From sequence record NC_047767.1: a stretch of 64,000 nt of DNA; one strand, given 5' to 3'. This stretch comes from Staphylococcus phage vB_SscM-1. The notes below the pieces were generated by a model. It was not told the DNA's origin, ran no database searches, and worked only from the letters and a program-made list of their open reading frames with translations. Below are positions 3,855-48,304 of the stretch, piece after piece. The position numbers and the translations under genes are program-made. Within the stretch, counting starts at the first letter, position 1; the number at the start of each line of letters is the position of its first letter.

Positions 3855-3883
3855 TTGACTTAAAGAGTAGTATGTGATATACT
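3855..3883 (+). promoter_or_regulatory. sigma-A-type promoter: TTGACT, 17-bp spacer, extended -10 TGaTATACT
   Basis: TTGACT at 3855-3860 and TATACT at 3878-3883, with TG at -15/-14. It lies in the 62-bp gap between the tape-measure stop (3854) and the tail-lysin start (3917). Confidence 0.6.
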
Positions 3884-3916
3884 ACTCTTATACATATTAA
3901 AGGAAATGGTGAGATT

Positions 3917-11412: not shown

Positions 11413-12113
11413 TGAGATTTAGAAAACATGTAATTCAATACGGAGATACAATGCAATCTATAGCTCAATATTATTACAATAATGTAGGTGCTTGGATAGA
11501 ATTGATAGAACATAACAATTTAAAATACCCTTATATAGTGGATGATGAAGTATTAAAGAACAAAGACCCAGAAAGACTTGTAACAATAGGAGACACAATT
11601 ATTATACCTACAGAAGAGGCTTTATCTGATGTAGTATTACAAGACATATCTGCTAAGGATAGAGATGCATTATTAGAGCTATCTTTTGGAAGAGACCTAA
11701 ATATAACAAGAGACGAAGGGTACTTTAATGAAAGAGGTACTAGTGACGAGATATTAGGATTTACAGGAACTTCAGGAGACTTAGATACTGTTACAGGAAT
11801 AGGTAATATTAAACAACAATTACAGACAAGACTTTTAACACCTAGAGGTTCTTTAATGTTACACCCTGATTATGGCTCGGACTTACATGAGTTGTTTGGA
11901 AAGAATATTCCAGAGCAAGCTGTACTTATAGAGATGGAAGTATGTAGAACAATATTGTCAGATGGAAGAGTACAGTCCGCTAATAACATAGACTGGAAGA
12001 TAGAGGGTAATGAATACTCAGGAACTTACAGTGTAGAACTAAAATCAGTAGAAGAATCAATAAGACTTGTATTAGAAGCAGATGAAACAGGTGTGTTTGC
12101 TCTATTTGAATAG
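11412..12113 (+). CDS. baseplate protein with an N-terminal LysM domain and a C-terminal gp25/GPW-like domain
   Basis: The N-terminal segment HVIQYGDTMQSIAQYYYNNVGAWIELIEHNNL fits the LysM pattern. The C-terminal segment GNIKQQLQTRLLTPRGSLMLHPDYGSDLHELFGKN...EMEVCRTIL fits the gp25/GPW baseplate wedge signature. Confidence 0.75.
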   Translation: MRFRKHVIQYGDTMQSIAQYYYNNVGAWIELIEHNNLKYPYIVDDEVLKNKDPERLVTIGDTIIIPTEEALSDVVLQDISAKDRDALLELSFGRDLNITRDEGYFNERGTSDEILGFTGTSGDLDTVTGIGNIKQQLQTRLLTPRGSLMLHPDYGSDLHELFGKNIPEQAVLIEMEVCRTILSDGRVQSANNIDWKIEGNEYSGTYSVELKSVEESIRLVLEADETGVFALFE

Positions 12114-12128
12114 GAAGGGATAAAAGAC

Positions 12129-13175
12129 ATGAAAACTAGAAAACTAACACATATACTATCTAGGATGATAGATAAAACAATGATATCTACTAGTAAACTA
12201 ACAGACTTCACACCCGGTTCAGCGGTAAGGTCTTTACTAGAGGCTGTATCATTAGAGATAGAACAGTTTTATATATTAACAAAAGAAAATATTGAATGGG
12301 GAATAGAAGAGGGTATTATAGAGGCTTTTGACTTTGATAAGAGGCAAGAAAGAAGAGCCTATGGAGAAGTTACTTTAACATTCTATAATCCTTTAGAAGA
12401 AAGAATGTACATACCGAAAGGAACAACATTTTCTTCTACTAGACAACAGTACTCCCAACAATTTGAAACACTTGTAGACTACTATGTATCAGAAGGTTCT
12501 ACAGATGCTATTGTAGAAGTCTATGCTAAAGAACCAGGTATAATAGGTAATGTACCAGAAGATACAATTAATGTCATGTCTTCTGCTTCTACGCTCATTA
12601 AATCTGTAACCAATGAATACTCATTCTCTACAGGACAAGAACAAGAGACACAAGAAGAGTTAAAAAGAAGATTCCATGCATATGTAGAATCAAGAGGTAG
12701 AGCTACAAATAAATCTATTAGATATGGTACATTACAAGTACCAGATGTTACAGGTGTATATGTACATGAAGAAGTAGGATATGTTAATGTATATGCACAT
12801 GATAAAAATGGTAATCTACCTATAGAAATGAGACAGGATATTATATCATCTATAGAGGACTATAGACCTAGTGGTATTAAATTAGATGTAACACCGGTAG
12901 TAAAATTAGATACAGATGTTACAGTTAAAGTTACAATATCTAATAAAGCAAGAATAGGAGAATCATTACAATTACACGTAGAGAGTGTTATAAGAGGTTA
13001 TTTAAATAATATGGGTGTATCTGATAACTTTGTACTAGCTGACTTAACACAAGCTATTATGAATATCGATGACATACTTATATACGATGTAAGTTTTACA
13101 ACACCTCAAAGTAATATTACAACTAAACCAGAAGAAATTATAAGAGCAGGAAAAATATCAGTAGAGCTTGTATAA
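12129..13175 (+). CDS. baseplate J-like (T4 gp6-like) protein
   Basis: 348 aa. It lies directly downstream of the gp25-like gene, which is the conserved gp25-gp6 order. The RBS is GGAAGGGATAAAAGACATG. Confidence 0.7.
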   Translation: MKTRKLTHILSRMIDKTMISTSKLTDFTPGSAVRSLLEAVSLEIEQFYILTKENIEWGIEEGIIEAFDFDKRQERRAYGEVTLTFYNPLEERMYIPKGTTFSSTRQQYSQQFETLVDYYVSEGSTDAIVEVYAKEPGIIGNVPEDTINVMSSASTLIKSVTNEYSFSTGQEQETQEELKRRFHAYVESRGRATNKSIRYGTLQVPDVTGVYVHEEVGYVNVYAHDKNGNLPIEMRQDIISSIEDYRPSGIKLDVTPVVKLDTDVTVKVTISNKARIGESLQLHVESVIRGYLNNMGVSDNFVLADLTQAIMNIDDILIYDVSFTTPQSNITTKPEEIIRAGKISVELV

Positions 13176-17413: not shown

Positions 17414-20400
17414 ATGGCATATAATTTTAGTTCAACACCATATTTAGATAGGTTTAATCCAGCTAAACACCATACAAGAGTATTGTTTAACCCAGATAGA
17501 CCTTTACAACAGTCTGAACTTAATGAAATGCAATCTATACAAACCTATTACCTTAAAAATTTAGGAGACTCTATTTTTAAAGACGGAGATAAACAATCAG
17601 GCTTAGATTTTACCTTAGATACAAACAAGGTACTGAAAGTAAATCCAGGGTATGTATATATTGATGGTAAATTAAGATACTACAATAGTGAGTCTACAGT
17701 AAGACTTACAGGAGTAGGAAGAGAAACAGTTGGAATTAAGATAGAAGAAAGAATTGTAACACCTGATGAGGATAGTTCATTATTAGACCAAACAAGTGGA
17801 GTACCTAGTCATTTTTCTAAAGGTGCAGACCGTTTAGAAGAGAAAATGACTCTAACATTAAATGACCCTACCTCAGCTACAATTTATACATTCCAAGATG
17901 GGGATTTATATATTAAAGCTACAAGTCCAGAGATGGATAGAATTAATAAGGTACTAGCAGAACGTACTTACGATGAGTCAGGTTCATATAAAGTAAGTGG
18001 ATTTGAATTATTCTCAGAGGGTAATGCTGTAGATGAAGACCATATATCACTTGTAGTAGATGCAGGGAAAGCATACGTATTAGGTTATAGTGTTAATAAA
18101 CCTGTATCAACAAGAATTAATGTACCTAAATCATATGAACTAGGTACATCTGAGAACGAAAGTACAATATTTAATACCTCTACAGGTTCTATTAGCTTAG
18201 CTAACTCACCTGTAAAAGATATTAATAGAGTTACAGCTCAAGTATTAGTAGATAAAGAGAGAGTAACAAGAGGAGCTATTGGAGATGGTCAAGACTACCT
18301 CTCTAACAACACAGCCTTTGAAGTTGTAAAAGTATGGACTGAAACAAGCCCAGGACAAACAACTAAGGAATACAAACAAGGTGAAGATTTTAGATTAATA
18401 GACGGACAAGCAATTGATTGGTCACCTTCTGGTCAAGAACCAAGTGGAGGTACAAGTTATTATGTATCTTATAAATACAATAAACGTATGACAAAAGATG
18501 TAGACTATACAGTTACTACTACAGGTGAAGGTGTAGGTAAGAAATGGTACTTAAACTTTACACCATCTGGAGGAGCTAAACCGATTGACCAAACAGTTGT
18601 ATTGGTAGACTATACTTACTATTTAGCTCGTAAAGATGCTGTAGTACTAGACAAAGAAGGTAACATAACTGTAATAGCAGGACAACCAAATATTTTAAGA
18701 CTTGTTTCACAACCTATAAGAATTGACCCTAATACATTACAGTTAGGAACAATTACAGTTCTCCCAGATTCAGAAGATGCAGAGTGTTTAACTTATGCAG
18801 TAACTAGACTATCTATGGAAGACTTACAGAAGGTTAAAAAACGTGTAGATGATTTAGAAATAAATCAAGCTATAAACGCTTTAGATGATGGAGCTATGGA
18901 AGGTCAAAACCCTCTAACACTACGTTCAGTATTTAGTGAAGGTTTCATTAGTTTAGATAAGGCAGATATTACTCATCCAGACTTTGGGGTAGTATTTAGT
19001 TTTGAGGATGCAGAAGCAACACTAGCTTATACAGAACAAGTAAATGCACCTGATATTATAGAAGGGGTATCTACAGCTCACGTATGGGGTAGATTAGTCT
19101 CAGCACCATTCACAGAAGAGAGAACAATCTATCAAGGACAAGCTTCTGAAACGATGAATGTTAATCCTTATAATATACCTAATAAACAAGGGGTATTAAA
19201 ATTAACACCAAGTGAAGATAACTGGATAGAAACAGAAAATGTAACTATCACAGAACAAAAAACTAAGAAGATTACTATGAACAGATTCTGGAGACATGGT
19301 GCTTCTCACTATAACGAAACAGAACACTATTTATACTCTAACTTACAATTAGATGCAGGTCAAGTATGGGAAGGTAAGTCATACTCTTATGATAAAACTC
19401 ATGGGCGTACAGGTACGCTTCTAGAGTCTGGAGGTCAACGTACTTTAGAGGAAATGATTGAGTTTATTAGACAAAGAGATGTTAAGTTTACTGTAAAAGG
19501 ATTACATCCTAATGACAATAACCTAGTATTACTCTTCGATGGTGTTAGATGTGCTATAACACCTGATACAGGATATAGAAAAGGCTCAGAAGATGGAAGC
19601 ATTATGACAGATGCTAAAGGGGTAGCAAAAGGTACATTCAGAATACCTCCAGGTATCCGTTGCGGTAACAGAGAAGTAACACTTAAGAACGTAGATTCTA
19701 CAAGTTCTACAACTTACTCAGCACATGGTCGTAAGAAAATAACACAGGATATTATTCTTAGAACAAGAGTTACAGTTAACTTGGTAGACCCATTAGCACA
19801 GTCATTCCAGTACGATGAAAACAGAACTATTTCATCTGTAGGATTATACTTTGCTAGTAAAGGTGATGCAAGTTCTAACGTACTAGTACAGATTCGTGGA
19901 ATGGGTGACCAAGGTTTCCCTAATAAAACAATCTATGCAGAAACGGTTATGAACGCAAGTGATATTAAAGTATCTAACAATGCTAGTGCAGAAACAAGAG
20001 TATACTTTGAAGACCCTATGATGGCAGAAGCAGGTAAGGAATATGCTATTGTTATCATTACAGAGTCGGATGCTTATACAATGTGGTTAGGTACTAGAAC
20101 TAAACCGAAGATTGATAAGCCTAATGAAATCATCTCAGGTAACCCTTACGTTCAAGGTGTTCTATTCAGTTCATCTAACGCATCTACATGGACTCCTCAC
20201 CAAAACTCCGACCTTAAATTTGGGGTGTATACTTCTAAATTTGATGAGACAGCTACAATAGAGTTTGATTCTATTAAAAGCGTAGAAGCAGACAGAATCG
20301 TATTAATGTCTACTTACTTGACTCCTGATAATACAGGGTGTAGCTGGGAGATTAAGATTATCTTTGACGACATGGATGAGAATGTAACATTTGACTCTAT

Positions 20401-31102: not shown

Positions 31103-33036
31103 TGGTTGTATTTAAAAGAGTAGAAATGAATAACTTTATGGCAGTAAAAGAAGCAACTTTAGACTTAGACAATAGAGGGTTAGTACTTATAGAAGGGAAA
31201 AATAAATCCAACGATTCATTTACTTCCAATGGGGCATCTAAGACAACTCTTATTACATCTATTACTTATGCTTTATATGGTAAGACAGAGAAGGGTTTAA
31301 AAGCAGATGAAGTTGTTAATAGAATTGAGAAAAAGAATACGTATGTTAAACTAACATTCTTTGTTGGTGACGATGAGTATAGAATTGAGAGATATAGGAA
31401 AGATAAAACACATAAAAATAAGGTATTGTTATTCTGTAATGATAAGGAGATAACAGGCTCTACTAATGATGTAACAGATAAAGCTATACAAGACCTGTTC
31501 GGTATTGAGTTTAACACCTATGTCAACGCTATTATGTACGGACAAGGAGATATTCCTATGTTCAGTCAAGCAACAGATAAGGGTAAAAAAGAAATACTTG
31601 AATCTATTACTAATGTAGAAGTATATAAAAAAGCACAAGATGTTGCTAAAGAAAAAATAAAAGAAATAGAACAAGAGCAACAATCTAAAGAGTCAGATAT
31701 TAATCAACTTAAATTTAAGGTTAGTATGTTAGAAGAGCAATATGACAAAGACTTAGACTATTACAAAAGTGTGATGGAACAAAAGAAACAAGAAGAGGAG
31801 TCTATCGAACAAGCTAAAAAAGAAGCTGAGAAACAAAGAGAAGAGATAAGCAAACAGATTGAAGAAGTTAAAAATAATATTCCTCAAGTAGAGGAAACAG
31901 AGTTTGAATTCTCAGATAGTTATTACAAAGCTCAAGAAGCAATTAATAAACTAGAAACTCATAAGAAAGATAAGTTATTACCTGCAGAACAAGAAGTTAC
32001 TACTACTTTTAATATCATAAAATATGATATTACAGAGTTAAATAAAAAACATTCTCAACTAGATACTAGTGACCATTGCCCTGTATGTGGTTCTCCTATT
32101 AATAATTCACATAAGGTAAAAGAGCAAGAGAATATTCAGGAGCAACTAGAAGTTAAGAAAAAACAACTAGAGCAATACCAAGAAGCTCTTAACAAAATAG
32201 AAGATAAAAAATTAGAATTAGAATCAAAGAAAGAAAAGATACAAAACATTATGCAAGTTGAGGAAGAAGACAAGAATAAACACCAACAAGAAATTCAAGA
32301 ACAATATAGAAAACAACAAAGCTATTATGCTAAAATTAGTGAATTAGAAAATAAAAAGAATAGTATCACAGACCCTGTATTAAATGATTATTCATATATT
32401 AAGAAACCTGATAAAGAAGAACATAAAAAAGGGGTAACATTTATTAACTTAACTATTGACAAACTGAGTGAAGATGTGTTACAATTAGAGAGTAATAAAG
32501 TACAGTACCAACAAGCAGTAGAAGCTTTCGGTAATAAAGGTATACGCTCAGTAGTACTAGACTTTATAACACCTTTCTTAAATGAGAAAGCTAATGAATA
32601 CCTACAAGTATTATCAGGCTCTGATATAAGTGTAGAATTCCAAACACAAGTAGAGAACACGAAAGGGGAACTTAAGGATAAGTTCGATGTAATAGTTACA
32701 AATTCAAATGGAGGAACAAGCTATAAGTCTAACTCAGCAGGAGAACAAAAGCGTATAGACTTAGCAATCAGTTTTGCTATACAAGACCTTATTATGAGTA
32801 AGGATGACATATCAACAAACATTGCCTTATACGATGAATGTTTTGATGGACTAGACACGGTAGGTTGTGAAAATGTAATCAAGTTATTAAAAGATAGATT
32901 AAAAACAGTAGGAACAATTTTTGTTATTACGCACTCAGAATCACTCAAACCATTATTTGAAAATGTTATTACAATGGTTAAAGAGGAAGGCGTATCAAGA
33001 TTAGAAAAGGAGAATAATAATGAAGTTAAAAATTAA
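31102..33036 (+). CDS. sbcC: SbcC/Rad50-like ATPase
   Basis: N-terminal P-loop region (GKNKSNDSFTSNGASKTTL), a long central coiled coil, a zinc-hook CPVCGSP, an ABC signature NSAGEQKRIDLA, and a Walker B/D-loop LYDECFDGLD. Confidence 0.85.
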   Translation: MVVFKRVEMNNFMAVKEATLDLDNRGLVLIEGKNKSNDSFTSNGASKTTLITSITYALYGKTEKGLKADEVVNRIEKKNTYVKLTFFVGDDEYRIERYRKDKTHKNKVLLFCNDKEITGSTNDVTDKAIQDLFGIEFNTYVNAIMYGQGDIPMFSQATDKGKKEILESITNVEVYKKAQDVAKEKIKEIEQEQQSKESDINQLKFKVSMLEEQYDKDLDYYKSVMEQKKQEEESIEQAKKEAEKQREEISKQIEEVKNNIPQVEETEFEFSDSYYKAQEAINKLETHKKDKLLPAEQEVTTTFNIIKYDITELNKKHSQLDTSDHCPVCGSPINNSHKVKEQENIQEQLEVKKKQLEQYQEALNKIEDKKLELESKKEKIQNIMQVEEEDKNKHQQEIQEQYRKQQSYYAKISELENKKNSITDPVLNDYSYIKKPDKEEHKKGVTFINLTIDKLSEDVLQLESNKVQYQQAVEAFGNKGIRSVVLDFITPFLNEKANEYLQVLSGSDISVEFQTQVENTKGELKDKFDVIVTNSNGGTSYKSNSAGEQKRIDLAISFAIQDLIMSKDDISTNIALYDECFDGLDTVGCENVIKLLKDRLKTVGTIFVITHSESLKPLFENVITMVKEEGVSRLEKENNNEVKN

Positions 33037-33679
33037 TAATAAGGATAGAGGAGACCTAGTAGTCTTCCATAAGAATAAGGAATATAAGGAAATAAAAGTA
33101 CCATTAGATAATCTAGAAGAGTGGTATCCTTTTAGCTTTGCTTATGAATATAAATTAGATAAGTTTGGTAAAGCATTGGAGCTTAAGAGACTACGCTCTA
33201 CACTACCAACATCTTATGGTATAAGTGACAATTCAACACACACAGTAAGTAAGGATAGTTGTAAGTGTGATTTACTGACATGGGTTAACCCAGCAGTTAA
33301 AAGAGAGAATATGAGAGTTATTGCAAAAGCTAAGAGTTATGGTTTACCAGTTATTAATGAACCTTACACTAAGCAAGATGTAAATAGAGGTATGAAAGAA
33401 CTAGGAGTTATCTTCAACAACTTAAAAGACATTGTTGTTAAAAGATACTTAAAAGATAAGTCAGAAGAAGAGATTAAAAGATTTAACATGAAAGCAGAAG
33501 AAAACCAATTAAGTGAAGCTTTGCAGAAAAGTGATGTAGCTGTTGATTTAACTTATAGTGAGTTAGGTCAAGTATACAGAATGTTAACACTTATGAAAAA
33601 AATAGTAAGACACAGAGAAGCAGTAAATATGGATATGGATATCTATAAGAACTATGAAGAACTATTAAATACAATCTAA
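33020..33679 (+). CDS. hypothetical protein (219 aa)
   Basis: It overlaps the sbcC end by 17 nt and is preceded by AAAAGGAGAATAATAATG. No motif was recognised. Confidence 0.65.
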   Translation: MKLKINNKDRGDLVVFHKNKEYKEIKVPLDNLEEWYPFSFAYEYKLDKFGKALELKRLRSTLPTSYGISDNSTHTVSKDSCKCDLLTWVNPAVKRENMRVIAKAKSYGLPVINEPYTKQDVNRGMKELGVIFNNLKDIVVKRYLKDKSEEEIKRFNMKAEENQLSEALQKSDVAVDLTYSELGQVYRMLTLMKKIVRHREAVNMDMDIYKNYEELLNTI

Positions 33680-35143: not shown

Positions 35144-35601
35144 TGACAAAAGTTACAAGCACACACTCAAAAGGAATTAACGATAATGAATTAAACATGT
35201 GGTTAGAGGCAGTTACTAGAAACACAGTAAATGGAGAAACTATTACACCTGACCAAGCTAAGCATTTAGATAGATTAGCAAACCGTAGCGTATCTTTAGA
35301 AGAAGCTACTCGTATCGCACAAACATTAGTAAGTGCAGATGCACAATATACTACTCAATACTTAAACCAACTTTTCAATATTGTTGATATTTTCCAAATT
35401 GTTATGGAAGATGAGTTAGGTTTAACAGAGGAGCAATTCAAGAAGGCTTCGGAGAAAGTAAAAGAGAAGCGTGAAGAGTTATTAGAGAAAGAACAAGAAA
35501 AGGTAAGAGAAGCATCAAAAGATGCACAAGAAGAAGCTCTAAAGGAAATCAAGGAAAAGAAAGAAGAAAAAATTGTACAAATGAAGTCTAGAAATGACTA
35601 A
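35143..35601 (+). CDS. hypothetical coiled-coil protein (152 aa)
   Basis: Its start overlaps the previous stop (TAATGA). The C-terminus is K/E-rich and coiled-coil-like. Confidence 0.65.
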   Translation: MTKVTSTHSKGINDNELNMWLEAVTRNTVNGETITPDQAKHLDRLANRSVSLEEATRIAQTLVSADAQYTTQYLNQLFNIVDIFQIVMEDELGLTEEQFKKASEKVKEKREELLEKEQEKVREASKDAQEEALKEIKEKKEEKIVQMKSRND

Positions 35602-36205
35602 TTCAAAGAAAAAGGGAGATAAGTTTGAAAGAAAGATTGCCAAGATTCTTGGTGATTGGTGGGGAGTAAAATTTAATAGAACACCTCAGAGTGGAGGAGC
35701 TAGTTGGGCTTCAAGTAATAACGCTGTAGGTGATATACTCCCTCCTGCACATGCAGGATTTCCTTTAGTAATTGAATGTAAACATAGAGAAGAATGGACT
35801 ATGGATAATGTACTTCTTAATAACAGAGAACCACATACATGGTGGGCTCAAGTTATAGGTGATAGCAGTACTGTAAATAAAGCACCTTGTTTGATATTCA
35901 CAAGGAATAGAGGTTCTATCTATGTTGCATTACCTTATATAGAGCAGGTTTACCTTGATTTAAGAGATAAGTCGTTTCCTATAATGAGAACAGACTTTAT
36001 TATTGAAAATATTAGAAAAGATAAATTATATTATGATGTGCTGATAACTACGATTGATGGGTTGACCAGTTTACCTACCTCTTATATTATTAGTCACTAC
36101 GGAAATTTTAAGACGACAGAATATAAAAAAGTTGAGTCAGAGGTAACTAAAAAAACCTCTATAGAGGAAGATACAATTATTGATGACCTTCTTAACAATA
36201 TATAA
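35594..36205 (+). CDS. Holliday-junction resolvase-like nuclease (Hjc / PD-(D/E)xK family)
   Basis: The N-terminal KKGDKFERKIAKILGDWWG resembles the Hjc-type GxxFERxL motif. It overlaps the previous gene by 8 nt. Confidence 0.6.
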   Translation: MTNSKKKGDKFERKIAKILGDWWGVKFNRTPQSGGASWASSNNAVGDILPPAHAGFPLVIECKHREEWTMDNVLLNNREPHTWWAQVIGDSSTVNKAPCLIFTRNRGSIYVALPYIEQVYLDLRDKSFPIMRTDFIIENIRKDKLYYDVLITTIDGLTSLPTSYIISHYGNFKTTEYKKVESEVTKKTSIEEDTIIDDLLNNI

Positions 36206-36225: not shown

Positions 36226-36540
36226 ATGGCAATGAAAGATGTAACAAGTGAAGAGTATAAAGAACAAAAAGGAGAAGGTTTAAAAATAGTAGACCTTTGG
36301 GCTCCTTGGTGCGGTTCTTGTAAGATGCTTAACCCTACAGTAGAAGGTTTAGCAAGTGAATATGAAAATGACCTAGATATTTTAAAGGTTAATATAGATG
36401 AAGAAGAGGATATAGCTAGTGAATTAGATGTCATGAGTATTCCTACTCTAGTGTTCTTTAAAGATGGAGAAAAAGTAGAAAGTCTTACTGGATTCCAACC
36501 TAAAGAAAAAATACAACAACTGATTGAAAAACATAAATAA
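36226..36540 (+). CDS. thioredoxin with a non-canonical CGSC active site
   Basis: WAPWCGSCK active-site motif, plus the cis-Pro loop and the …SIPTLVFFKDGEKV… beta-strand typical of the thioredoxin fold. Confidence 0.8.
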   Translation: MAMKDVTSEEYKEQKGEGLKIVDLWAPWCGSCKMLNPTVEGLASEYENDLDILKVNIDEEEDIASELDVMSIPTLVFFKDGEKVESLTGFQPKEKIQQLIEKHK

Positions 36541-36549
36541 TAGGAGGAC

Positions 36550-37902
36550 ATGACTTTGATTACGCAAATTAAGAAAAGAGATGGGTCTATTGTAGAATAT
36601 GACCTTAATAAAGTAACTAATGCTATCTTAAAAGCTAACTCAGAAACAAATGAGTACTTAGAGGATAGCATTGATATTCTAGTAGATGATGTAGATAGCT
36701 TATTAGAAGAAAAAGAGGAAGTACTTACAGTTGAGTGTGTACAGGATATGGTAGAAAAGGTACTACTAGGCAGTGAGTTTAAAGAGACAGCTAAAGAGTA
36801 CATCTTATATAGAGATAAAAGAGATAGAGAAAGACGTAGAGATATCTTTAAAGCAAGAAAAGAGTTAAAACCATATGAGTATCCGGAGTTATTAGAATAC
36901 ATTAGAGCTATTCAAAATAGTTATTGGGTTCACACAGAGTTTAACTACACAAGTGATATTCAAGATTACATGCAGAATGTTAAACCTCATGAGCGTACAG
37001 CTATTAAAAATGCAATGTTAGCTATTGCACAAGTAGAAGTATCAGTTAAGACATTCTGGGGAGACTTATATCACCGTATGCCTAAATGGGAAACAGGAGC
37101 AGTAGGAGCTACATTCTCAGAGTCAGAAGTACGTCATGCAGATGCATACTCTCACTTAATAGAGTTACTAGGACTTAATGATGAGTTCAAGAACATTGAT
37201 AATATTCCAGCATTAAAAGAGCGTGTAGATGAATTATCAATGCATATAAAACTAAGTAAGAGTGAAGAGGATAAAGACTACGTATTATCTGTATTATTAT
37301 TCTCATTATTTATTGAGCACGTATCATTATTTAGTCAATTCTTAATCATGATGAGTTTTAACAAACATAAAAACTTATTTAGAGGATTATCAAACGCAAT
37401 CGAAGCTACAAGTAAAGAGGAACAGATTCATGGTCTATTTGGTATTGAGCTTATTAATATCATAAGAGAAGAGCACCCTGAGTGGTTCGATGAAGAAATG
37501 GAGAAAGCAGTTTATGAAGCTTGTAAACATTCTCTTGAAGCAGAAATAAAAGTTATTGACTGGCTTTATGAAGATGGAGAATTAGAATTCTTACCTAAAA
37601 AGGTAGTACAAGAGTTTATTAAGAACAGACTTAATAATTCTTTAGAGGCAGTAGGATACGAGAAGTTATTTGAAATTGATGAAGAACTTATCGAAGAAAC
37701 AGCATGGTTCGATGACGAAGTAATCAGTACAAAATTAACAGACTTCTTGTCTAAACGTTCAGTTAACTATACTAAGTTTACAAACTCAGTAACAGAAGAT
37801 ACATTATTCTCTTCAACATCAGAATTTGAAAACTCAGAAAAAGAAATCAGTAAAGATAAAGTAAACGAGATTTTACGCTTACGTATGCTAACAAGAGGAT
37901 AA
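36550..37902 (+). CDS. ribonucleotide reductase small (radical-generating, R2/NrdB-like) subunit with an N-terminal ATP-cone fused to it
   Basis: Residues 1-95 form an ATP-cone (IKKRDGSIVEYDLNKVTNAILKA…YILYRDKRDRERR). R2 motifs: FSESEVRHADAYSHLIE (Glu/His metal ligands plus the radical-site Tyr) and SKEEQIHGLFGIEL (ExxH). The residue aligned with the usual first Asp ligand appears to be Glu (IAQVEVSV). Confidence 0.8.
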   Translation: MTLITQIKKRDGSIVEYDLNKVTNAILKANSETNEYLEDSIDILVDDVDSLLEEKEEVLTVECVQDMVEKVLLGSEFKETAKEYILYRDKRDRERRRDIFKARKELKPYEYPELLEYIRAIQNSYWVHTEFNYTSDIQDYMQNVKPHERTAIKNAMLAIAQVEVSVKTFWGDLYHRMPKWETGAVGATFSESEVRHADAYSHLIELLGLNDEFKNIDNIPALKERVDELSMHIKLSKSEEDKDYVLSVLLFSLFIEHVSLFSQFLIMMSFNKHKNLFRGLSNAIEATSKEEQIHGLFGIELINIIREEHPEWFDEEMEKAVYEACKHSLEAEIKVIDWLYEDGELEFLPKKVVQEFIKNRLNNSLEAVGYEKLFEIDEELIEETAWFDDEVISTKLTDFLSKRSVNYTKFTNSVTEDTLFSSTSEFENSEKEISKDKVNEILRLRMLTRG

Positions 37903-37919
37903 CATAGGAGGAAATTATA

Positions 37920-39602
37920 TTGGAACAGTTTGAATGGTTAAATACAGATTCAAGAGTATTCTTGGAGAGAGGATACTTAAGTGAGGGTGAAACACCTGAG
38001 CAACGTATTAGAGATATAGCAGATACAGCAGAGGAGATTTTAGGAATCGAAGGATTCTCTGATAAATTTTATTACTACATGGGTAGAGGTTACTACTCAT
38101 TATCTAGTCCTGTATGGTCTAACTTCGGTAAAGATAGAGGACTAAGTATTAGTTGTTTTGGTTCATACACAGGAGACTCTATACCTTCTATTTTAGGTAC
38201 AGCAAGTGAAGTAGGGGTTATGAGTAAATTTGGAGGAGGAACAAGCGGTTACTTTGGTAAAGTAAGACCTAGAGGTTCTGATATTACTAATAATGGTAAG
38301 ACAAGCGGTTCTGTACACTTCATGAAGTTATTTGAACAAATGACAGATACTATCTCTCAAGGTAATACACGTAGAGGTAGATTTAGTCCTTACTTACCTA
38401 TCGACCACCCAGATATTGAAGAATTCTTAGAAATTGGTACAGAAGGTAACCCTATTCAAAACATGACACATGCAGTAACTGTTACAGATGATTGGTTACA
38501 AGATATGGTTAACGGAGATTTAGAGAAACGTAAAATATGGGCTAAGGTTCTTACACGTAGAACTCAATTAGGATTCCCTTACATCATGTTCAGTGATAAC
38601 GCAAACAATAATACAGTAGACGTATATAAAGATAAAGGGATGAAGATTAATAACTCAAACTTATGTTCTGAAATATTCCTACCTAATAATGAAGAAGAAT
38701 CATTTGTATGTTGTTTATCTTCAATGAATTTAGTACACTATGAAGAGTGGAAAGACACAGATGCAGTTGAAGTATTAACTTACTTCCTTGATGCAGTAAT
38801 GTCTGAGTTCATTTCAGACTTAGAGAAAATGAGAGACTCAGAAGATATTGAGAAGAGAGAATCATTTAGATTAATGGAAAGAGCTTATAACTTCTCTAAA
38901 CGCCACCGTGCATTAGGATTAGGAGTACTTGGATGGCACTCTTATTTACAATCTAAAATGATACCTTTTGAAAGTGTAGAAGCTAGTCGTCTTAACACAC
39001 AAATATTCTCATTCATCAAGAAGAAAGCATACAAAGCAAGTAAAGAACTAGCAGAATTATTCGGTGAACCAGAATTACTACAAGGTTATGGTAGAAGAAA
39101 TAGTACACTACTAGCATTAGCTCCTACTACTTCAAGTTCATTTATCTTAGGTCAAGTATCTAAGTCTATTGAACCATTCATGAGTAACTATTATGTAGTA
39201 GACACAGCTAAAGTTAAGAAAACAATGATTAACCCTTACCTTAAGGAACTACTTAAAGAAAAAGGTAAAGATACTAAAGAAGTACTAGAAAGTATTAGAG
39301 ACTATGATGGTTCAGTACAACACTTAGACTTCTTAAATCAAAGAGAAAAAGATGTATTTAAAACATATGGTGAAATTAACCAGTATAACATTTTAGACCA
39401 AGCAGGAAGTAGACAGTATTACATTGACCAAGGACAATCAATTAATATTATGGTTAATCCTAAGCATGTAACAGCAGAAGAACTTAATGAGCTTTACCTC
39501 TTTGCATGGGCTAACGGTATTAAATCTTTATATTACCAACACGGTACTAACTCAGCTCAACAGTTTAACTTATCTAAATTATGTATCAACTGTGAAGCTT
39601 AA
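37920..39602 (+). CDS. ribonucleotide reductase large (R1/NrdA-like) subunit, short form lacking an ATP-cone
   Basis: TTG start lies 7 nt after AGGAGGA. Matches include GGGTSGYFGKVRPRGSDI, the catalytic NLCSEIFLP (N-x-C-x-E) and a C-terminal Cys pair LCINCEA. At 560 aa it is about 150 aa shorter at the N-terminus than canonical class I R1. Confidence 0.8.
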   Translation: MEQFEWLNTDSRVFLERGYLSEGETPEQRIRDIADTAEEILGIEGFSDKFYYYMGRGYYSLSSPVWSNFGKDRGLSISCFGSYTGDSIPSILGTASEVGVMSKFGGGTSGYFGKVRPRGSDITNNGKTSGSVHFMKLFEQMTDTISQGNTRRGRFSPYLPIDHPDIEEFLEIGTEGNPIQNMTHAVTVTDDWLQDMVNGDLEKRKIWAKVLTRRTQLGFPYIMFSDNANNNTVDVYKDKGMKINNSNLCSEIFLPNNEEESFVCCLSSMNLVHYEEWKDTDAVEVLTYFLDAVMSEFISDLEKMRDSEDIEKRESFRLMERAYNFSKRHRALGLGVLGWHSYLQSKMIPFESVEASRLNTQIFSFIKKKAYKASKELAELFGEPELLQGYGRRNSTLLALAPTTSSSFILGQVSKSIEPFMSNYYVVDTAKVKKTMINPYLKELLKEKGKDTKEVLESIRDYDGSVQHLDFLNQREKDVFKTYGEINQYNILDQAGSRQYYIDQGQSINIMVNPKHVTAEELNELYLFAWANGIKSLYYQHGTNSAQQFNLSKLCINCEA

Positions 39603-39631
39603 TCCCTTTAAAGAAAAGAGGAAACTATATT

Positions 39632-39949
39632 ATGGATAGAGAAGAAGGTTTAAGGTTACTTAATAATACAAGTAAAGTATTTGAAGGTAAGGAAGACTTT
39701 TTGTATGTTACAGATGTTTACGATGCATCAAAGATACTATATGGTAAAGATGATAAGAGTGTAGACTCTAATACAGTTATGGCTCAAGTAGACTTTGTTT
39801 ATAAGAGTGAATACTACATCTTACAGTATAATGCAGGTAGACAAGCTACAAAGCTTATTATGGCAAATGAAAATGGAACAGTCGATAGAACTGTAAACAT
39901 TAATGAGTTTAAAGATATTATAAAATCAATTCAAAAGGATGGTAAATAA
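39632..39949 (+). CDS. hypothetical protein (105 aa)
   Basis: RBS AAGAGGAAACTATATTATG. Confidence 0.65.
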   Translation: MDREEGLRLLNNTSKVFEGKEDFLYVTDVYDASKILYGKDDKSVDSNTVMAQVDFVYKSEYYILQYNAGRQATKLIMANENGTVDRTVNINEFKDIIKSIQKDGK

Positions 39950-39952
39950 GAT

Positions 39953-40264
39953 ATGAAGGAAGTTACATCATTAGGTAATTTAAGTGCTACAATTAAGGAA
40001 AAGAAGGATGCCATTGTTATCATGGTACAAGACAATTGTGCAAAAAGTGAAATTATTAAGAACACAATTCCTTTATTAGAAGAAGACATTGAAAAGCCTA
40101 TTCTATTACTAGACTTAGATGCAAAAGACGTAAATAGAGAAAAAGCAGAGGAGCTTTTCGGTTCTGAAACACCTGCTTTAATAGGTTATAAAGATGGAGA
40201 AAGAAAAGATGTATACGCAGGTAACATCACTCCTACACAATTAGTTAAATTAGATAATTTGTAA
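39953..40264 (+). CDS. thioredoxin-fold protein with a monothiol CxxS motif
   Basis: IVIMVQDNCAKSE (C-A-K-S) and the thioredoxin-like C-terminal part TPALIGYKDGERKDVYAG. Confidence 0.65.
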   Translation: MKEVTSLGNLSATIKEKKDAIVIMVQDNCAKSEIIKNTIPLLEEDIEKPILLLDLDAKDVNREKAEELFGSETPALIGYKDGERKDVYAGNITPTQLVKLDNL

Positions 40265-41075: not shown

Positions 41076-41379
41076 AATATCAGCTAACAGAAAAGACATT
41101 GCAAGAAAAATATCGGAGTCTACAGGTTATTATATGAAAGATATAGAAGAGATACTGGATGCCGAAGCAGAAGCTATAGTGGAATTAATAGAAGAGGGTT
41201 ATACTAAGGTTAAGAGCCATAAACTTATGCAGATAGAAGTAGTAGAGAGAGATAGCAAGAAAGCATGGAATGGACTTAAAAAAGAATACTATACATTACC
41301 TAGTAAAAAGGTATTAAAACTAAAGACTCTTAAGCAACTAGAACAAGCAGAAGAGAACATTAATAGAGTAGATGATTAA
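41059..41379 (+). CDS. HU/IHF-family (SPO1 TF1-like) DNA-binding protein
   Basis: KISANRKDIARKISESTGYYMKDIEEIL…HKLMQIEVVERDSKKAWNGLKKEYYTLPSKKVLKLK matches the HU fold pattern (Gly-Phe-Glu-x-Arg arm equivalent; the beta-arm K/R and P). The start is GTG 41059, or GTG 41068 after AAGGGTGGT. Confidence 0.65.
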   Translation: MVTVDKISANRKDIARKISESTGYYMKDIEEILDAEAEAIVELIEEGYTKVKSHKLMQIEVVERDSKKAWNGLKKEYYTLPSKKVLKLKTLKQLEQAEENINRVDD

Positions 41380-41395
41380 ATTCATCTACTTTTTT
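41367..41395 (+). terminator. intrinsic terminator: 9-bp stem agtagatga/tcatctact followed by a T6 run
   Basis: The stem encloses the stop codon of the HU-like gene. The hairpin is followed by TTTTTT. Confidence 0.7.
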
Positions 41396-41397
41396 AT

Positions 41398-41426
41398 TTG
41401 ACAAAGTATAAATAGTATGATATAAT
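41398..41426 (+). promoter_or_regulatory. sigma-A-type promoter: TTGACA, 17-bp spacer, TGaTATAAT
   Basis: TTGACA at 41398-41403 and TATAAT at 41421-41426. Confidence 0.7.
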
Positions 41427-45803: not shown

Positions 45804-46997
45804 ATGTCAGCATTCCAAGATTTTTTAAAACAAGAAAAGAAACAATTAGAAAGTGCAGGATTTAACAATAACGATGGAGGAGAACGTTATACACCTAAGA
45901 ACCCGGTATTAAGATTAGGTAAAGTTAAAGATGCTAATGGTCAAAAAGTAGATAAGAAAGAGGCTTATGTACGTATCTTACCACCTGTAGAGCAAGGTTC
46001 TATGGCATTTGCTAAAGGTTTCCGTACAACAGGTATTAACTACAGTAAGAAAGATGGTTCACAAGGTTTCTCAGGTTTAACATTACCTTTAGAGGAAGGT
46101 TCATCTGTTATCGACCCATTCATTGCAGGTTGGATTAGAGATGGTGTAGCTTTCAGTTTATACCCTAACAAACCGGCTACACGTTACTTTATTCATGTTG
46201 TAGAGTATGTACCTACAGCTAATGGTATTCAACCACGACAAGATGCTCAAGGTAACTTACTAATTCAACCTATGGAAATTACTAAAACAGCTTATGACTC
46301 ATTGATTGGTAAGTTAGAAGACCAATTCTTATCACCATCACCTAATGCAGATTTCCGATTCATTTCAGAAAATGAAGCATTCTTAGTTAAATTCACTAAA
46401 GCTGAAAAAGGTCAAACTTCATGGGGATTAGATGTTTACTCTAATCAAAACTTAGGAGCTTTACCAAACAACTGGAGAGAATTAACTTCTGACTTAGAAG
46501 CATTAGCAAAACCTACAGAAGAACAAAACCCTAACTTTGTTAACTTCTTAATTAACAATGTAAATAACACAGAGTTATCTGTAGACAACTTTAAGTTTAA
46601 CCGTGAGTCTAACGTATTAGGTGCAGAGCCAACACAAGAACCAACTCAAGATAGCATTGAAAGCCAGTTACCTGGTAACTTGGCACCTCAGCAAGGATAT
46701 AACCAATCACAACAAGGTCAAGTAGGGGAATATGCACAACCAGGTGTAAATCAAACACCACCACAGCAACAATCACAACCTTTACCAGGAACACAGCAAC
46801 CTATTGATAATACACAACAAGGGCAAGGTAATCCATTTGAAGGCTTTGACCCTAGTCAAATGAGTGCACCTCAACAACCAGTACAACAACAGCAACCAGC
46901 ACAACCTCAACAGCCAGTGCAACCACAATCTAGTACTTCTAACGGTATGGGAGCAATTGATGATGTGTTAGAAGGATTAGATTTAGATAACTTATAA
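45804..46997 (+). CDS. gp32-like single-stranded DNA-binding protein with a Q/P-rich linker and an acidic C-terminal tail
   Basis: The N-terminal …VLRLGKVKDANGQKVDKKEAYVRILPP… resembles the T4 gp32 N-terminal region. The C-terminal linker is low-complexity QQPVQQQQPAQPQQPVQPQ. The acidic tail is DDVLEGLDLDNL. Confidence 0.65.
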   Translation: MSAFQDFLKQEKKQLESAGFNNNDGGERYTPKNPVLRLGKVKDANGQKVDKKEAYVRILPPVEQGSMAFAKGFRTTGINYSKKDGSQGFSGLTLPLEEGSSVIDPFIAGWIRDGVAFSLYPNKPATRYFIHVVEYVPTANGIQPRQDAQGNLLIQPMEITKTAYDSLIGKLEDQFLSPSPNADFRFISENEAFLVKFTKAEKGQTSWGLDVYSNQNLGALPNNWRELTSDLEALAKPTEEQNPNFVNFLINNVNNTELSVDNFKFNRESNVLGAEPTQEPTQDSIESQLPGNLAPQQGYNQSQQGQVGEYAQPGVNQTPPQQQSQPLPGTQQPIDNTQQGQGNPFEGFDPSQMSAPQQPVQQQQPAQPQQPVQPQSSTSNGMGAIDDVLEGLDLDNL

Positions 46998-47010
46998 GAA
47001 CTAACTTAAT

Positions 47011-47040
47011 AGAGTGCTTTAAGCACTCTATTCTTCTATT
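47011..47040 (+). terminator. moderate intrinsic terminator: stem agagtgc/gcactct
   Basis: 7-bp stem with loop tttaa. The T-tract that follows is interrupted (attcttctatt). Confidence 0.5.
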
Positions 47041-47071
47041 GAATATAATACGAAAGGTGTAATGTAATATT

Positions 47072-48304
47072 ATGGCAAGAGCTAAAAAAGGAAAAGAAAT
47101 AGATACAACAGATTTAAATGTTATTGACTTAGGTAAAGAATTAGGTTTAGGACTAATGACAGATTCAAATAGAGCAAACATTACAAATGTTATTCCTACT
47201 ATGGTACCTCAATATGATAGTATTATGGGTGGAGGATTACCTTTAGGAAGACTTGTAGAGGTTTATGGAATTCCAGGTTCAGGTAAATCTACTTTTGCAG
47301 TTCACTTATCTAAGTTAACTACTGAAATGGGAGTTATCACAGTATGGATTGATGTTGAAGGTACAGCAGATAACAACCGTATGGAACAACTAGGAGTAGA
47401 CGTAAGTAAGCTATTTACTATTCAAGCAGGAGAAGGTAGACTTAAGAAGACTGTAGAGCTTTCTGTAGAGCAAGTAGGTAAAGAGTTAGAGTATTGGATA
47501 GATACATTCAATGAGAAGATGCCAGGGGTACCTATTGTCTTTATTTGGGATTCTCTAGGAGCTACACGAACAGAGAAAGAGATTGAGAATGGTATTGATG
47601 AGAAACAGATGGCTCAAAAGGCAGTAGCCACTCAGAAAGTAGTAAATGCTATTACACCTAAGCTTAATGAAACTAACACAGGGGTTATTATTATTAACCA
47701 AGCAAGAGATGATTTAAAAGCAGGTATGTATGGAGACCCTGTTAAATCAGGTGGGGGTAAAGCCTTTGAACATGCCGCCAGCCTAAGACTTAAGATTGAT
47801 AGAGGGGCAGAAGCAGATTATAAACAAATAGATGAGCTTACTGGAGAGAAAAGTTATAGAGGGCACTTAATGAAAGTAACAACTAAGAAGTCTAAGTTAT
47901 CTCGACCAGGACAAACAGCTAAAACTTTACTAGCTTCTGATTACCAATTAGAGGGCGGATTAAAAATCAATGGTATTGACCCTGAGTTCATGATTTATCA
48001 AGAAGCAGTTAATCTAGGACTTATTACAAAAGGTACATGGAGAAACTATGTAACACTTAACGGAGAAGAAGTTAAGCTATATGATAAAGATTGGGTACCT
48101 CGATTAAAGAATGATAGAGAACTATATCTAGAGATATTCAAACGTGTGTATGTAGAATACTTCCCTAATGGATTTGCACCATTAGACAATACTAAAGTAG
48201 ACGTTACGATGTTAGAGGAGTTTAAGGTATTAAAAGATTTCTACGAGGAATTAGAGAAAGAGGAACCTAAAGGAGAATCCACTGAAAAGGAATCAGATGA
48301 ATGA
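47072..48304 (+). CDS. RecA/UvsX-like recombinase
   Basis: Walker A VEVYGIPGSGKSTFAVHL and Walker B IVFIWDSLGATR. Confidence 0.8.
   Translation: MARAKKGKEIDTTDLNVIDLGKELGLGLMTDSNRANITNVIPTMVPQYDSIMGGGLPLGRLVEVYGIPGSGKSTFAVHLSKLTTEMGVITVWIDVEGTADNNRMEQLGVDVSKLFTIQAGEGRLKKTVELSVEQVGKELEYWIDTFNEKMPGVPIVFIWDSLGATRTEKEIENGIDEKQMAQKAVATQKVVNAITPKLNETNTGVIIINQARDDLKAGMYGDPVKSGGGKAFEHAASLRLKIDRGAEADYKQIDELTGEKSYRGHLMKVTTKKSKLSRPGQTAKTLLASDYQLEGGLKINGIDPEFMIYQEAVNLGLITKGTWRNYVTLNGEEVKLYDKDWVPRLKNDRELYLEIFKRVYVEYFPNGFAPLDNTKVDVTMLEEFKVLKDFYEELEKEEPKGESTEKESDE

Follow-up and report, generated by a model that had tools for sequence, protein, structure and literature searches.

We analyzed a 64,000-nucleotide (nt) stretch of the genome of Staphylococcus phage vB_SscM-1 (NC_047767.1; hereafter the window, whose numbering is used for all positions) that contains genes for both subunits of a ribonucleotide reductase (RNR). 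According to the list of open reading frames (ORFs), closely packed genes follow one another on the + strand from 34.8 to 41.4 kb, and the genes and segments described below for the RNR locus all lie on this strand. The row includes a thioredoxin gene at 36226 to 36540 (104 amino acids, aa), nrdB at 36550 to 37902 (450 aa), which encodes a radical-generating subunit bearing an ATP-cone at its N terminus, and nrdA at 37920 to 39602 (560 aa), which encodes the catalytic subunit. Two small genes follow at 39632 to 39949 (105 aa) and 39953 to 40264 (103 aa). The 4-kb region is 99.4% identical in phage ZCSS1, 98.8% identical in UHP46, and 93% identical in the Mammaliicoccus phages of Sciuriunavirus, a genus of the Herelleviridae (Twortvirinae). 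What the present analysis shows for this locus is the arrangement of its domains, the class of the enzyme, the conservation of residues, the synteny, and the mosaicism.

The product of nrdB was identified from Pfam, NCBIfam, and Protein Data Bank (PDB) matches. As an earlier reading of this DNA (the original prediction) had proposed, an ATP-cone at aa 6 to 93 (PF03477, 36565 to 36828; E = 4.8e-18, 65.9 bits against a cutoff of 25.8) is fused to a ferritin-like R2 core at aa 104 to 377 (Ribonuc_red_sm, PF00268, 36859 to 37680; E = 1.5e-55). Among all PDB chains, the best match to NrdB was the ATP-cone NrdB of Leeuwenhoekiella blandensis (5OLK, aa 4 to 420, E = 7e-160), followed by cone-less class Id beta structures from L. 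blandensis and Flavobacterium johnsoniae (among them 6SF4 and 6CWO). Structures of other classes matched far more weakly, at E values of about 1e-12 for class Ic, 1e-8 for class Ib, and 2e-4 for class Ia (Escherichia coli R2).

The metal ligands of NrdB form a complete E/E/H/E/E/H set (E163, E193, H196, E256, E291, and H294). The first ligand, E163 in the motif AQVEVSV, had been suspected to be Glu, and the ligand alignment to L. blandensis bears this out: the six residues correspond in order to the L. blandensis manganese ligands Glu170, Glu200, His203, Glu263, Glu298, and His301, and K167 corresponds to Lys174 (PMC6754362). Also present are the three residues that accompany the ligands in class Id proteins, namely, K167 (Lys71 in F. 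johnsoniae; located where core helix 1 is unwound), the helix-1 tryptophan W170 (Trp177 in L. blandensis), and T287, the threonine partner of the tyrosine (Thr191 in F. johnsoniae, Thr294 in L. blandensis). In an alignment of 49 homologues (A1), none of the six ligands varies, and neither do K167, W170, Y200, and T287. Y200 occupies the radical-site position, and E291 and H294 make up the second ExxH motif (EEQIH); both features had been predicted. The label "radical Tyr" does not carry over, however, since class Id is defined by a Tyr/Glu pairing plus a Lys, and its tyrosine is not oxidized to a stable radical (review, PMC8463856).

Likewise, the predicted short R1 without a cone was recovered. 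The only Pfam domains of NrdA are the R1 all-alpha domain (Ribonuc_red_lgN) and the barrel; the ATP-cone profile PF03477 does not match. The protein scores 752.3 bits with TIGR02510 ("NrdE-prime"; cutoff, 602.25) and aligns end to end with the PDB structures 6DQX (E = 1.4e-221, aa 3 to 559) and 6DQW (E = 1e-187), whereas structures of other classes reach 5e-55 or weaker. These two class Id alpha structures were reportedly described by Rose et al. in 2019. With its 560 aa, NrdA comes close to the median length of class Id alpha subunits (565 aa), and it carries the expected residues C79, N247, C249, E251, C264/C265, Y538/Y539, and C555xxC558, with the motif NLCSEI at 247 to 252. By these sequence criteria both subunits are class Id (NrdAi/NrdBi), the assignment that the original prediction had offered tentatively, together with a transfer of activity control to the radical-generating subunit. 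None of the three results that would have overturned that prediction was obtained: the cone profile matches the N-terminal part of NrdB, NrdB is R2-like, and R1 carries no cone.

The same genes are annotated as class Ia (NrdA/NrdB, with a di-iron tyrosyl radical) in ZCSS1, UHP46, Golestan101, and other GenBank records, and a tyrosine at the radical position would fit that annotation. We nevertheless consider class Ia extremely improbable. The alpha subunit lacks the cone and, while passing TIGR02510, obtains 81.6 bits with the class Ia alpha model NF006578 (cutoff, 813). NrdB obtains 28.5 bits with NF006576 (cutoff, 346), its first ligand is Glu and not Asp, and the E. coli R2 structures match it only at an E value of about 2e-4, compared with 7e-160 for the class Id structure. 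Class Ib was rejected on the scores for TIGR04171 (56.8 bits; cutoff, 355) and TIGR04170 (137 bits; cutoff, 750) and on the absence of NrdI. Class Ic and R2lox assignments fail on both scores and ligands.

The nrdA gene is uninterrupted in the window, whereas mobile elements have inserted extensively into the class Id nrdA genes of related phages. In Romulus (L005:8354-12883), an intein-like insertion follows "SQG," and HNH and homing-endonuclease ORFs are also present. HNH or GIY-YIG ORFs split the gene in CF5 (L002:7365-10092), in a Nosocomiicoccus prophage (L006:7350-10412), and in contig L014 (6970 to 9713). The Baoshanvirus Golestan101 retains intact thioredoxin and nrdB genes, but its nrdA is cut to a 53-aa ORF (L003:7647-7808), whereas the sister Baoshanvirus PSU4 has the full 560-aa gene; the loss reflects either a deletion, which would leave an orphan NrdB, or an assembly problem. 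Some close NrdB homologues (P0031, P0071, and P0073, at 750 to 776 aa, and P0035, at 568 aa) are 120 to 330 aa longer with unchanged termini and with only the ATP-cone and R2 Pfam domains, and they probably carry inteins or other insertions in nrdB.

The cone of NrdB can be aligned to that of 5OLK, with which it shares 45% identity, and conserves K9/R10/D11. Of the residues equivalent to the L. blandensis tetramer interface (Asp73, residue 76, Met80, Lys89, Ile92, Ile93, and Arg95), five are identical and two are conservatively replaced in the window (D66, E69, L73, K82, I85, L86, and R88). By analogy with L. blandensis (PMC5794259) and Facklamia ignava (PMC6187632), for which dATP-driven beta4 and nonproductive complexes have been shown, ATP is expected to favor beta2 and active alpha2beta2, and dATP to favor inactive beta4 and nonproductive alpha2beta4/alpha4beta4. 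The modest identity to the characterized cone would also fit a vestigial or repurposed domain that provides no dATP off-switch through beta4. Phages may benefit from unregulated deoxynucleotide synthesis, and a mosaic in sibling phages (see below) indicates that cone and core can be uncoupled. However, K9, R10, K21, D66, E69, and R88 are invariant across the 49 homologues, and the sibling cone is 92% identical despite an exchanged core. Nearly all of the 160 loci from viruses and metagenomes whose neighborhoods were examined (the best 80 each from IMG/VR and JGI) also retain the cone. The invariant residues, the interface conservation, and the retention of the cone therefore argue for purifying selection, and we regard loss of the regulatory function as improbable.

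No NrdI gene was found in the window or in the whole ZCSS1 genome, either by tblastn with two phage NrdI queries (E ≤ 0.1) or in the ZCSS1 annotation; nor did tblastn and annotation reveal NrdF or a second RNR in either. The absence of nrdI had thus been noted correctly but is not unusual: it is the published rule for the class, stated as not one of over 260 class Id beta genes being located close to an NrdI (PMC8463856). Consistent with this rule, NrdI was beside class Id genes in 0 of the 80 IMG/VR loci and 0 of the 80 JGI loci. The contrary case comes from phage-like Logan contigs (L096 and L097; SRR32478201 and SRR32478199), in which a clear NrdI flavodoxin gene (L096:8633-9046; PF07972, 85 bits) lies ~1 kb upstream of an ATP-cone nrdB of the "long" type (with the C-terminal extension described below), a 560-aa nrdA, and an NrdH-like gene. 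No NrdE or NrdF was detected within 21 kb in L096/L097. When viral contigs were searched with the NrdI of L015, no hit was confirmed, and L096/L097 remain an isolated case of NrdI with class Id. The arrangement runs counter to the published rule and could point to a class Id enzyme that receives its superoxide from NrdI.

Two thioredoxin-fold genes flank the subunit genes. The upstream one (36226 to 36540), predicted as a CGSC thioredoxin, scores above the cutoff of TIGR01068 (115.4 versus 96.8 bits; Pfam Thioredoxin, E = 9e-28). It keeps the CxxC and the cis-Pro (IPT) but has WCGSC in place of the canonical WCGPC, a Pro-to-Ser change; among plant thioredoxins, CGSC is known as an atypical motif. 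The dipeptide drifts among relatives, being CGSC in the window and in the metagenomic Sciuriunavirus-like contig L008, CSVC in Golestan101, and CGPC in the Nosocomiicoccus prophage. Among staphylococcal phages, this gene is restricted to Sciuriunavirus and Baoshanvirus (eight records) and is therefore an accessory to the cassette.

The downstream protein (39953 to 40264) has the predicted thioredoxin fold and CAKS motif. C29-A-K-S32 aligns with the thioredoxin CxxC, the resolving Cys being replaced by Ser; the single sequence scores 19.6 bits with Pfam Thioredoxin, below the cutoff, and the family profile matches solved thioredoxins over their full length (E = 6e-8). Its assignment to the RNR cassette did not hold. 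The gene has homologues in 334 Twortvirinae phage records, is 52% identical to phage K ORF83 ("Tio"), and is separated from nrdA by the gene at 39632 to 39949, a homologue of phage K ORF82 (30% identical, E = 3e-16) without a Pfam or NCBIfam match. It is a core Twortvirinae backbone gene that is not tied to RNR class. CxxC is retained in phage K, Romulus, CF5, phiIPLA-C1C, Golestan101, and PSU4, with CGKC, CAKC, CVKC, and CGFC as the motifs found outside the CAKS pair, and, among the sequences examined, CAKS occurs only in the window and L008. The conserved role of the family therefore tolerates loss of the resolving Cys, and the protein may be monothiol or structural.

Host thioredoxin serves T7 DNA polymerase as a structural and processivity partner, and one or both flanking proteins could similarly have a non-RNR role, for example, as partner of a PolA-type polymerase, with host redoxins reducing the RNR. 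The downstream gene is always near an HU-like gene and polA whatever the RNR class, its CAKS motif shows that dithiol chemistry is dispensable for the conserved role, and in Silviaviruses the class Id RNR persists although the upstream thioredoxin is missing. On the other side, the upstream thioredoxin gene ends 9 nt before nrdB with its CxxC and cis-Pro kept, and NrdH-like or thioredoxin genes adjoin the same kind of operon in related phage contigs. Redoxin genes adjoining or fused to RNR genes are a known pattern (PMC6187632). We therefore find a non-RNR role possible but rather unlikely, and favor the upstream thioredoxin as a reductant of the enzyme.

The enzymes of L. blandensis, F. ignava, and F. 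johnsoniae are close homologues with published biochemistry (PMC5794259; PMC6187632; PMC6754362; PMC8463856), and from them a working mechanism can be proposed in which the metal identity, oxidant, dATP-induced oligomerization, and choice of reductant are inferred. Two Mn ions would be held by NrdB E163, E193, H196, E256, E291, and H294. A channel that K167 lines would admit superoxide to the exposed site, where it would oxidize the cluster to a Mn(III)/Mn(IV) oxidant; neither NrdI nor a stable tyrosyl radical would be involved. The oxidizing equivalent would then pass from Y407 in the NrdB tail to NrdA Y538/Y539 and on to C249, at which point reduction of the nucleoside diphosphate would begin. 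The C79/C264-265 disulfide formed in each turnover would be reduced by the NrdA C-terminal C555xxC558, and this pair would be re-reduced by a thioredoxin, most plausibly the upstream phage WCGSC protein, itself recycled by host thioredoxin reductase. Activity would be set by the NrdB cone. With ATP bound, beta2 and active alpha2beta2 would be favored; two dATP molecules per cone would create cone-cone contacts, giving beta4 tetramers and the nonproductive alpha2beta4/alpha4beta4.

We give a probability of roughly 0.88 to the reading that the locus encodes a complete class Id aerobic RNR of a Sciuriunavirus (a Twort-like staphylococcal/Mammaliicoccus myovirus) that works as proposed by homology. 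Several points weigh against it. The enzyme is known from genes alone, as are all its staphylococcal phage homologues. The cone is just 45% identical to that of L. blandensis, and the 30-aa C-terminal extension of NrdB could alter the docking of beta on alpha. Since Silviavirus phages have the same RNR without the upstream thioredoxin, this thioredoxin is dispensable, and its place may be taken by host thioredoxin or NrdH. Finally, because a related contig carries NrdI, independence of NrdI may not hold across the clade.

The genes of the locus are each preceded by a Shine-Dalgarno sequence. That of nrdB (GGAGGA, 36543 to 36548) lies merely 1 nt before the ATG at 36550, and the N terminus in ZCSS1 and most homologues falls at the position of a TTG at 36556. 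Because of this spacing and the homologous N termini, the real nrdB start is probably TTG 36556, which would give a protein of 448 aa beginning MITQIKK. The nrdA gene also starts with TTG, with GGAGG 8 nt upstream. No terminator-like site was found on the + strand between 36226 and 40264. Given this absence, the tight spacing, and the Shine-Dalgarno sites, the RNR locus is probably cotranscribed with the neighboring replication genes.

Several other features of the window were recorded. A terminator-like hairpin (41365 to 41392) is directly followed by a perfect 12/12 sigma-70 consensus promoter with an extended −10 TG (41398 to 41426), and the pair (41365 to 41426) lies just upstream of a 1,080-aa PolA gene. 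This gene is uninterrupted in the window, whereas it is split by introns in phage K and phiIPLA-C1C. A 219-aa ORF at 33020 to 33679 is the counterpart of an L007 gene with G1_gp67_N and G1_gp67_C domains; in ZCSS1 this counterpart is annotated as an anti-sigma factor, i.e., a binder of host sigma A of the phage G1 gp67 type. G+C content is 0.36 to 0.39 at positions 1 to 4000, 18001 to 20000, and 46001 to 48000, compared with a window average of ~0.32, and GC skew is positive across the window, consistent with all genes lying on the + strand.

Phage K, phiIPLA-C1C, and the window have a common gene order: primase, two small ORFs, a PDDEXK "resolvase," the RNR genes, ORF82, the thioredoxin-like ORF83, one ORF, an HU/IHF-like gene, and PolA. 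At the RNR position, phage K (Kayvirus) and phiIPLA-C1C (Sepunavirus) have nrdI-nrdE-nrdF, whereas the window, Silviavirus, and Baoshanvirus have (trx)-nrdB-nrdA. In the window, the left flank outside the cassette is the PDDEXK_15 "resolvase"-like nuclease gene at 35594 to 36205 (PF24608, E = 4.7e-67), 70% identical to phage K ORF78, and on the right the ORF82 and ORF83 homologues are 30% and 52% identical to their phage K counterparts. The position of the resolvase is shared by phage K, Romulus, CF5, PSU4, and phiIPLA-C1C, and that of the ORF82 homologue by phage K, Romulus, and CF5. Phage K NrdI and NrdF found no match in the window, and phage K NrdE is 23% identical to NrdA. These orthologous flanks, the missing counterparts of NrdI and NrdF, the low NrdE identity, and the lack of NrdI in ZCSS1 support a swap of RNR cassettes (class Ib and class Id exchanged in one slot), much as the original prediction had suggested. 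In the history we propose, a (Trx)-nrdB-nrdA unit would have come to occupy the slot of the Kayvirus/Sepunavirus nrdI-nrdE-nrdF genes, and the NrdB core plus nrdA have undergone a further exchange.

Evidence for the further exchange comes from contig L008 and a second metagenomic Sciuriunavirus-like contig, L007, both of which have the gene order of the window. Their DNA is 93 to 99% identical to the window up to ~36730 to 36820, falls to ~62 to 80% (mostly 65 to 75%) over the NrdB core and nrdA, and returns to ~90% from ~39600. The mosaic segment thus spans approximately 36760 to 39600 and takes in the last part of the cone-coding sequence together with the NrdB core and nrdA; its boundaries are approximate (left, ~36730 to 36820; right, ~39600). 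Sibling protein identity to the window is 89/97 residues in the cone, 215/323 in the core, and 66% in NrdA. The difference between cone and core therefore places the left junction at the end of the cone-coding segment. From these comparisons, the NrdB core and nrdA have been exchanged among Sciuriunavirus-like phages, with a left junction at the cone/core boundary. Between nrdB and nrdA, L007 has a 309-aa ORF (7260 to 8189; CapR, treble-clef zinc-finger, and RAP domains) that is not in L008. It looks like a free-standing mobile, possibly homing-type, nuclease gene, and it suggests homing-type coconversion as a possible source of the exchanged segment. Elsewhere in L007, an IS605 OrfB/TnpB-like gene (11888 to 13021; HTH_OrfB_IS605, OrfB_IS605, and Cas12f1-like_TNB) lies between the HU-like and DNA polymerase genes; it is absent from the window and L008.

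NrdB continues for ~30 residues past F420, where L. blandensis NrdB and most other homologues stop. This C-terminal extension (aa 421 to 450, 37810 to 37899), delimited by alignment of homologues, is conserved down to ~60% overall identity. It has the form F420-S-x-x-S-E-Φ-E, then a linker, then an amphipathic K-x-x-V-N-x-x-L-R-x-R-M-L helix. K435 and M446 do not vary across 36 "long" sequences, in which V438, N439, L442, and R443 each reach a conservation of at least 86%. The AlphaFold2 monomer model gives a disordered linker and a helix at 435 to 448 with low confidence (pLDDT, 55 to 63) and no docking. Every long-type context examined was a phage or prophage with Staphylococcaceae-like hosts: the window, three Twortvirinae genera, the Nosocomiicoccus prophage with its intron-split nrdA, L014, and L096. 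The Nosocomiicoccus sequence, the closest named cellular match, was rejected as a bacterial gene because its surroundings are prophage-like, comprising PolA, Dam, HNH, DUF3310, and the split nrdA.

The extension is absent from characterized class Id proteins. No covarying indel was found in NrdA when long-type (window and PSU4) and short-type (L008 and Actinobacillus ureae) proteins were compared. A mimic of class Ib NrdF was also considered and rejected, as the tail bears no resemblance to the NrdF C termini of phage K and phiIPLA-C1C. Possible roles include a second contact with alpha, a dock for a phage redoxin, or a link to the replisome. Only tentatively do we suggest that the tail is a new interaction module of class Id beta that moves with its cognate alpha through cone/core recombination, and that a phage of this subclade pairs class Id with NrdI. 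The extension, the cone/core recombination junction, and the loss of the resolving Cys in the downstream redoxin seem to be undescribed so far.

The original description of the locus as unusual was overstated. Full-length ATP-cone NrdB homologues, ~79 to 80% identical, occur in Silviavirus (Remus, Romulus, Stau2, SA11, and CF5), and others occur in Baoshanvirus (PSU4 and Golestan101). Relatives are encoded on at least 477 IMG/VR contigs and at least 173 JGI metagenome contigs, and nrdB is immediately followed by nrdA, in the same orientation, in 77 of the 80 IMG/VR and 75 of the 80 JGI neighborhoods (152/160). Previously, 93 RefSeq NrdBi proteins with N-terminal cones were reported in viruses and bacteria (eLife 2018, PMC5794259). 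The architecture is thus ordinary among viruses and no new category, and together with the cofactor and the allosteric mechanism it was already published in 2018 to 2019. A literature search on class Id RNR in staphylococcal phages (Silviavirus/Kayvirus, Romulus/Remus, and ZCSS1) found no paper discussing it.

The assignment corrects a systematic misannotation, as dozens of therapeutic-candidate Staphylococcus myoviruses (Silviavirus, Sciuriunavirus, and Baoshanvirus) are listed with a class Ia enzyme. Twort-like phages that carry either class Ib (NrdI-dependent) or class Id (NrdI-independent and regulated on beta) in one slot also offer a natural comparison, which could address why a phage favors one manganese RNR chemistry and mode of regulation rather than the other. 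For RNR specialists, the locus provides an ATP-cone::NrdBi variant adapted to Gram-positive bacteria, in which NrdB has an additional conserved module at its C terminus and the thioredoxin has a gene of its own; the module, the cone/core recombination, and the rare association with NrdI are of particular interest.

Among known systems, the class Id RNR of L. blandensis (5OLK and 6SF4; Rozman Grinberg et al., PMC5794259) is similar in having the cone on beta and a cone-less alpha, in alignment over NrdB 4 to 420, in its identical ligands, Lys, Trp, Tyr, and Thr, and in the conserved cone interface. In contrast to it, the window system is borne by a phage (of a Gram-positive host), has ~30 additional conserved residues at the NrdB C terminus, and has a thioredoxin gene immediately upstream. 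The F. ignava Grx::ATP-cone::NrdBi system (PMC6187632) is likewise a Firmicutes class Id RNR with the cone on beta, a redoxin linked to nrdB, and nrdA directly downstream. There, a glutaredoxin is fused to NrdB, whereas the window has a separate upstream WCGSC thioredoxin gene; the searched text of the F. ignava paper describes no C-terminal extension. The alpha subunit resembles those of A. ureae and F. johnsoniae (6DQX and 6DQW), which are minimal (~565 aa) and cone-less, with the catalytic Cys, Asn, Glu, and Tyr and the C-terminal CxxC all conserved. It differs from that of A. ureae by a 12-residue insertion at ~aa 301 to 312 that is common to both phage alpha alleles. Finally, the class Ib cassette of phage K and phiIPLA-C1C occupies exactly the same slot, from the PDDEXK "resolvase" to ORF82/ORF83, upstream of the HU-like gene and polA. 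That cassette, unlike the one in the window, is class Ib, places alpha before beta, and requires NrdI.

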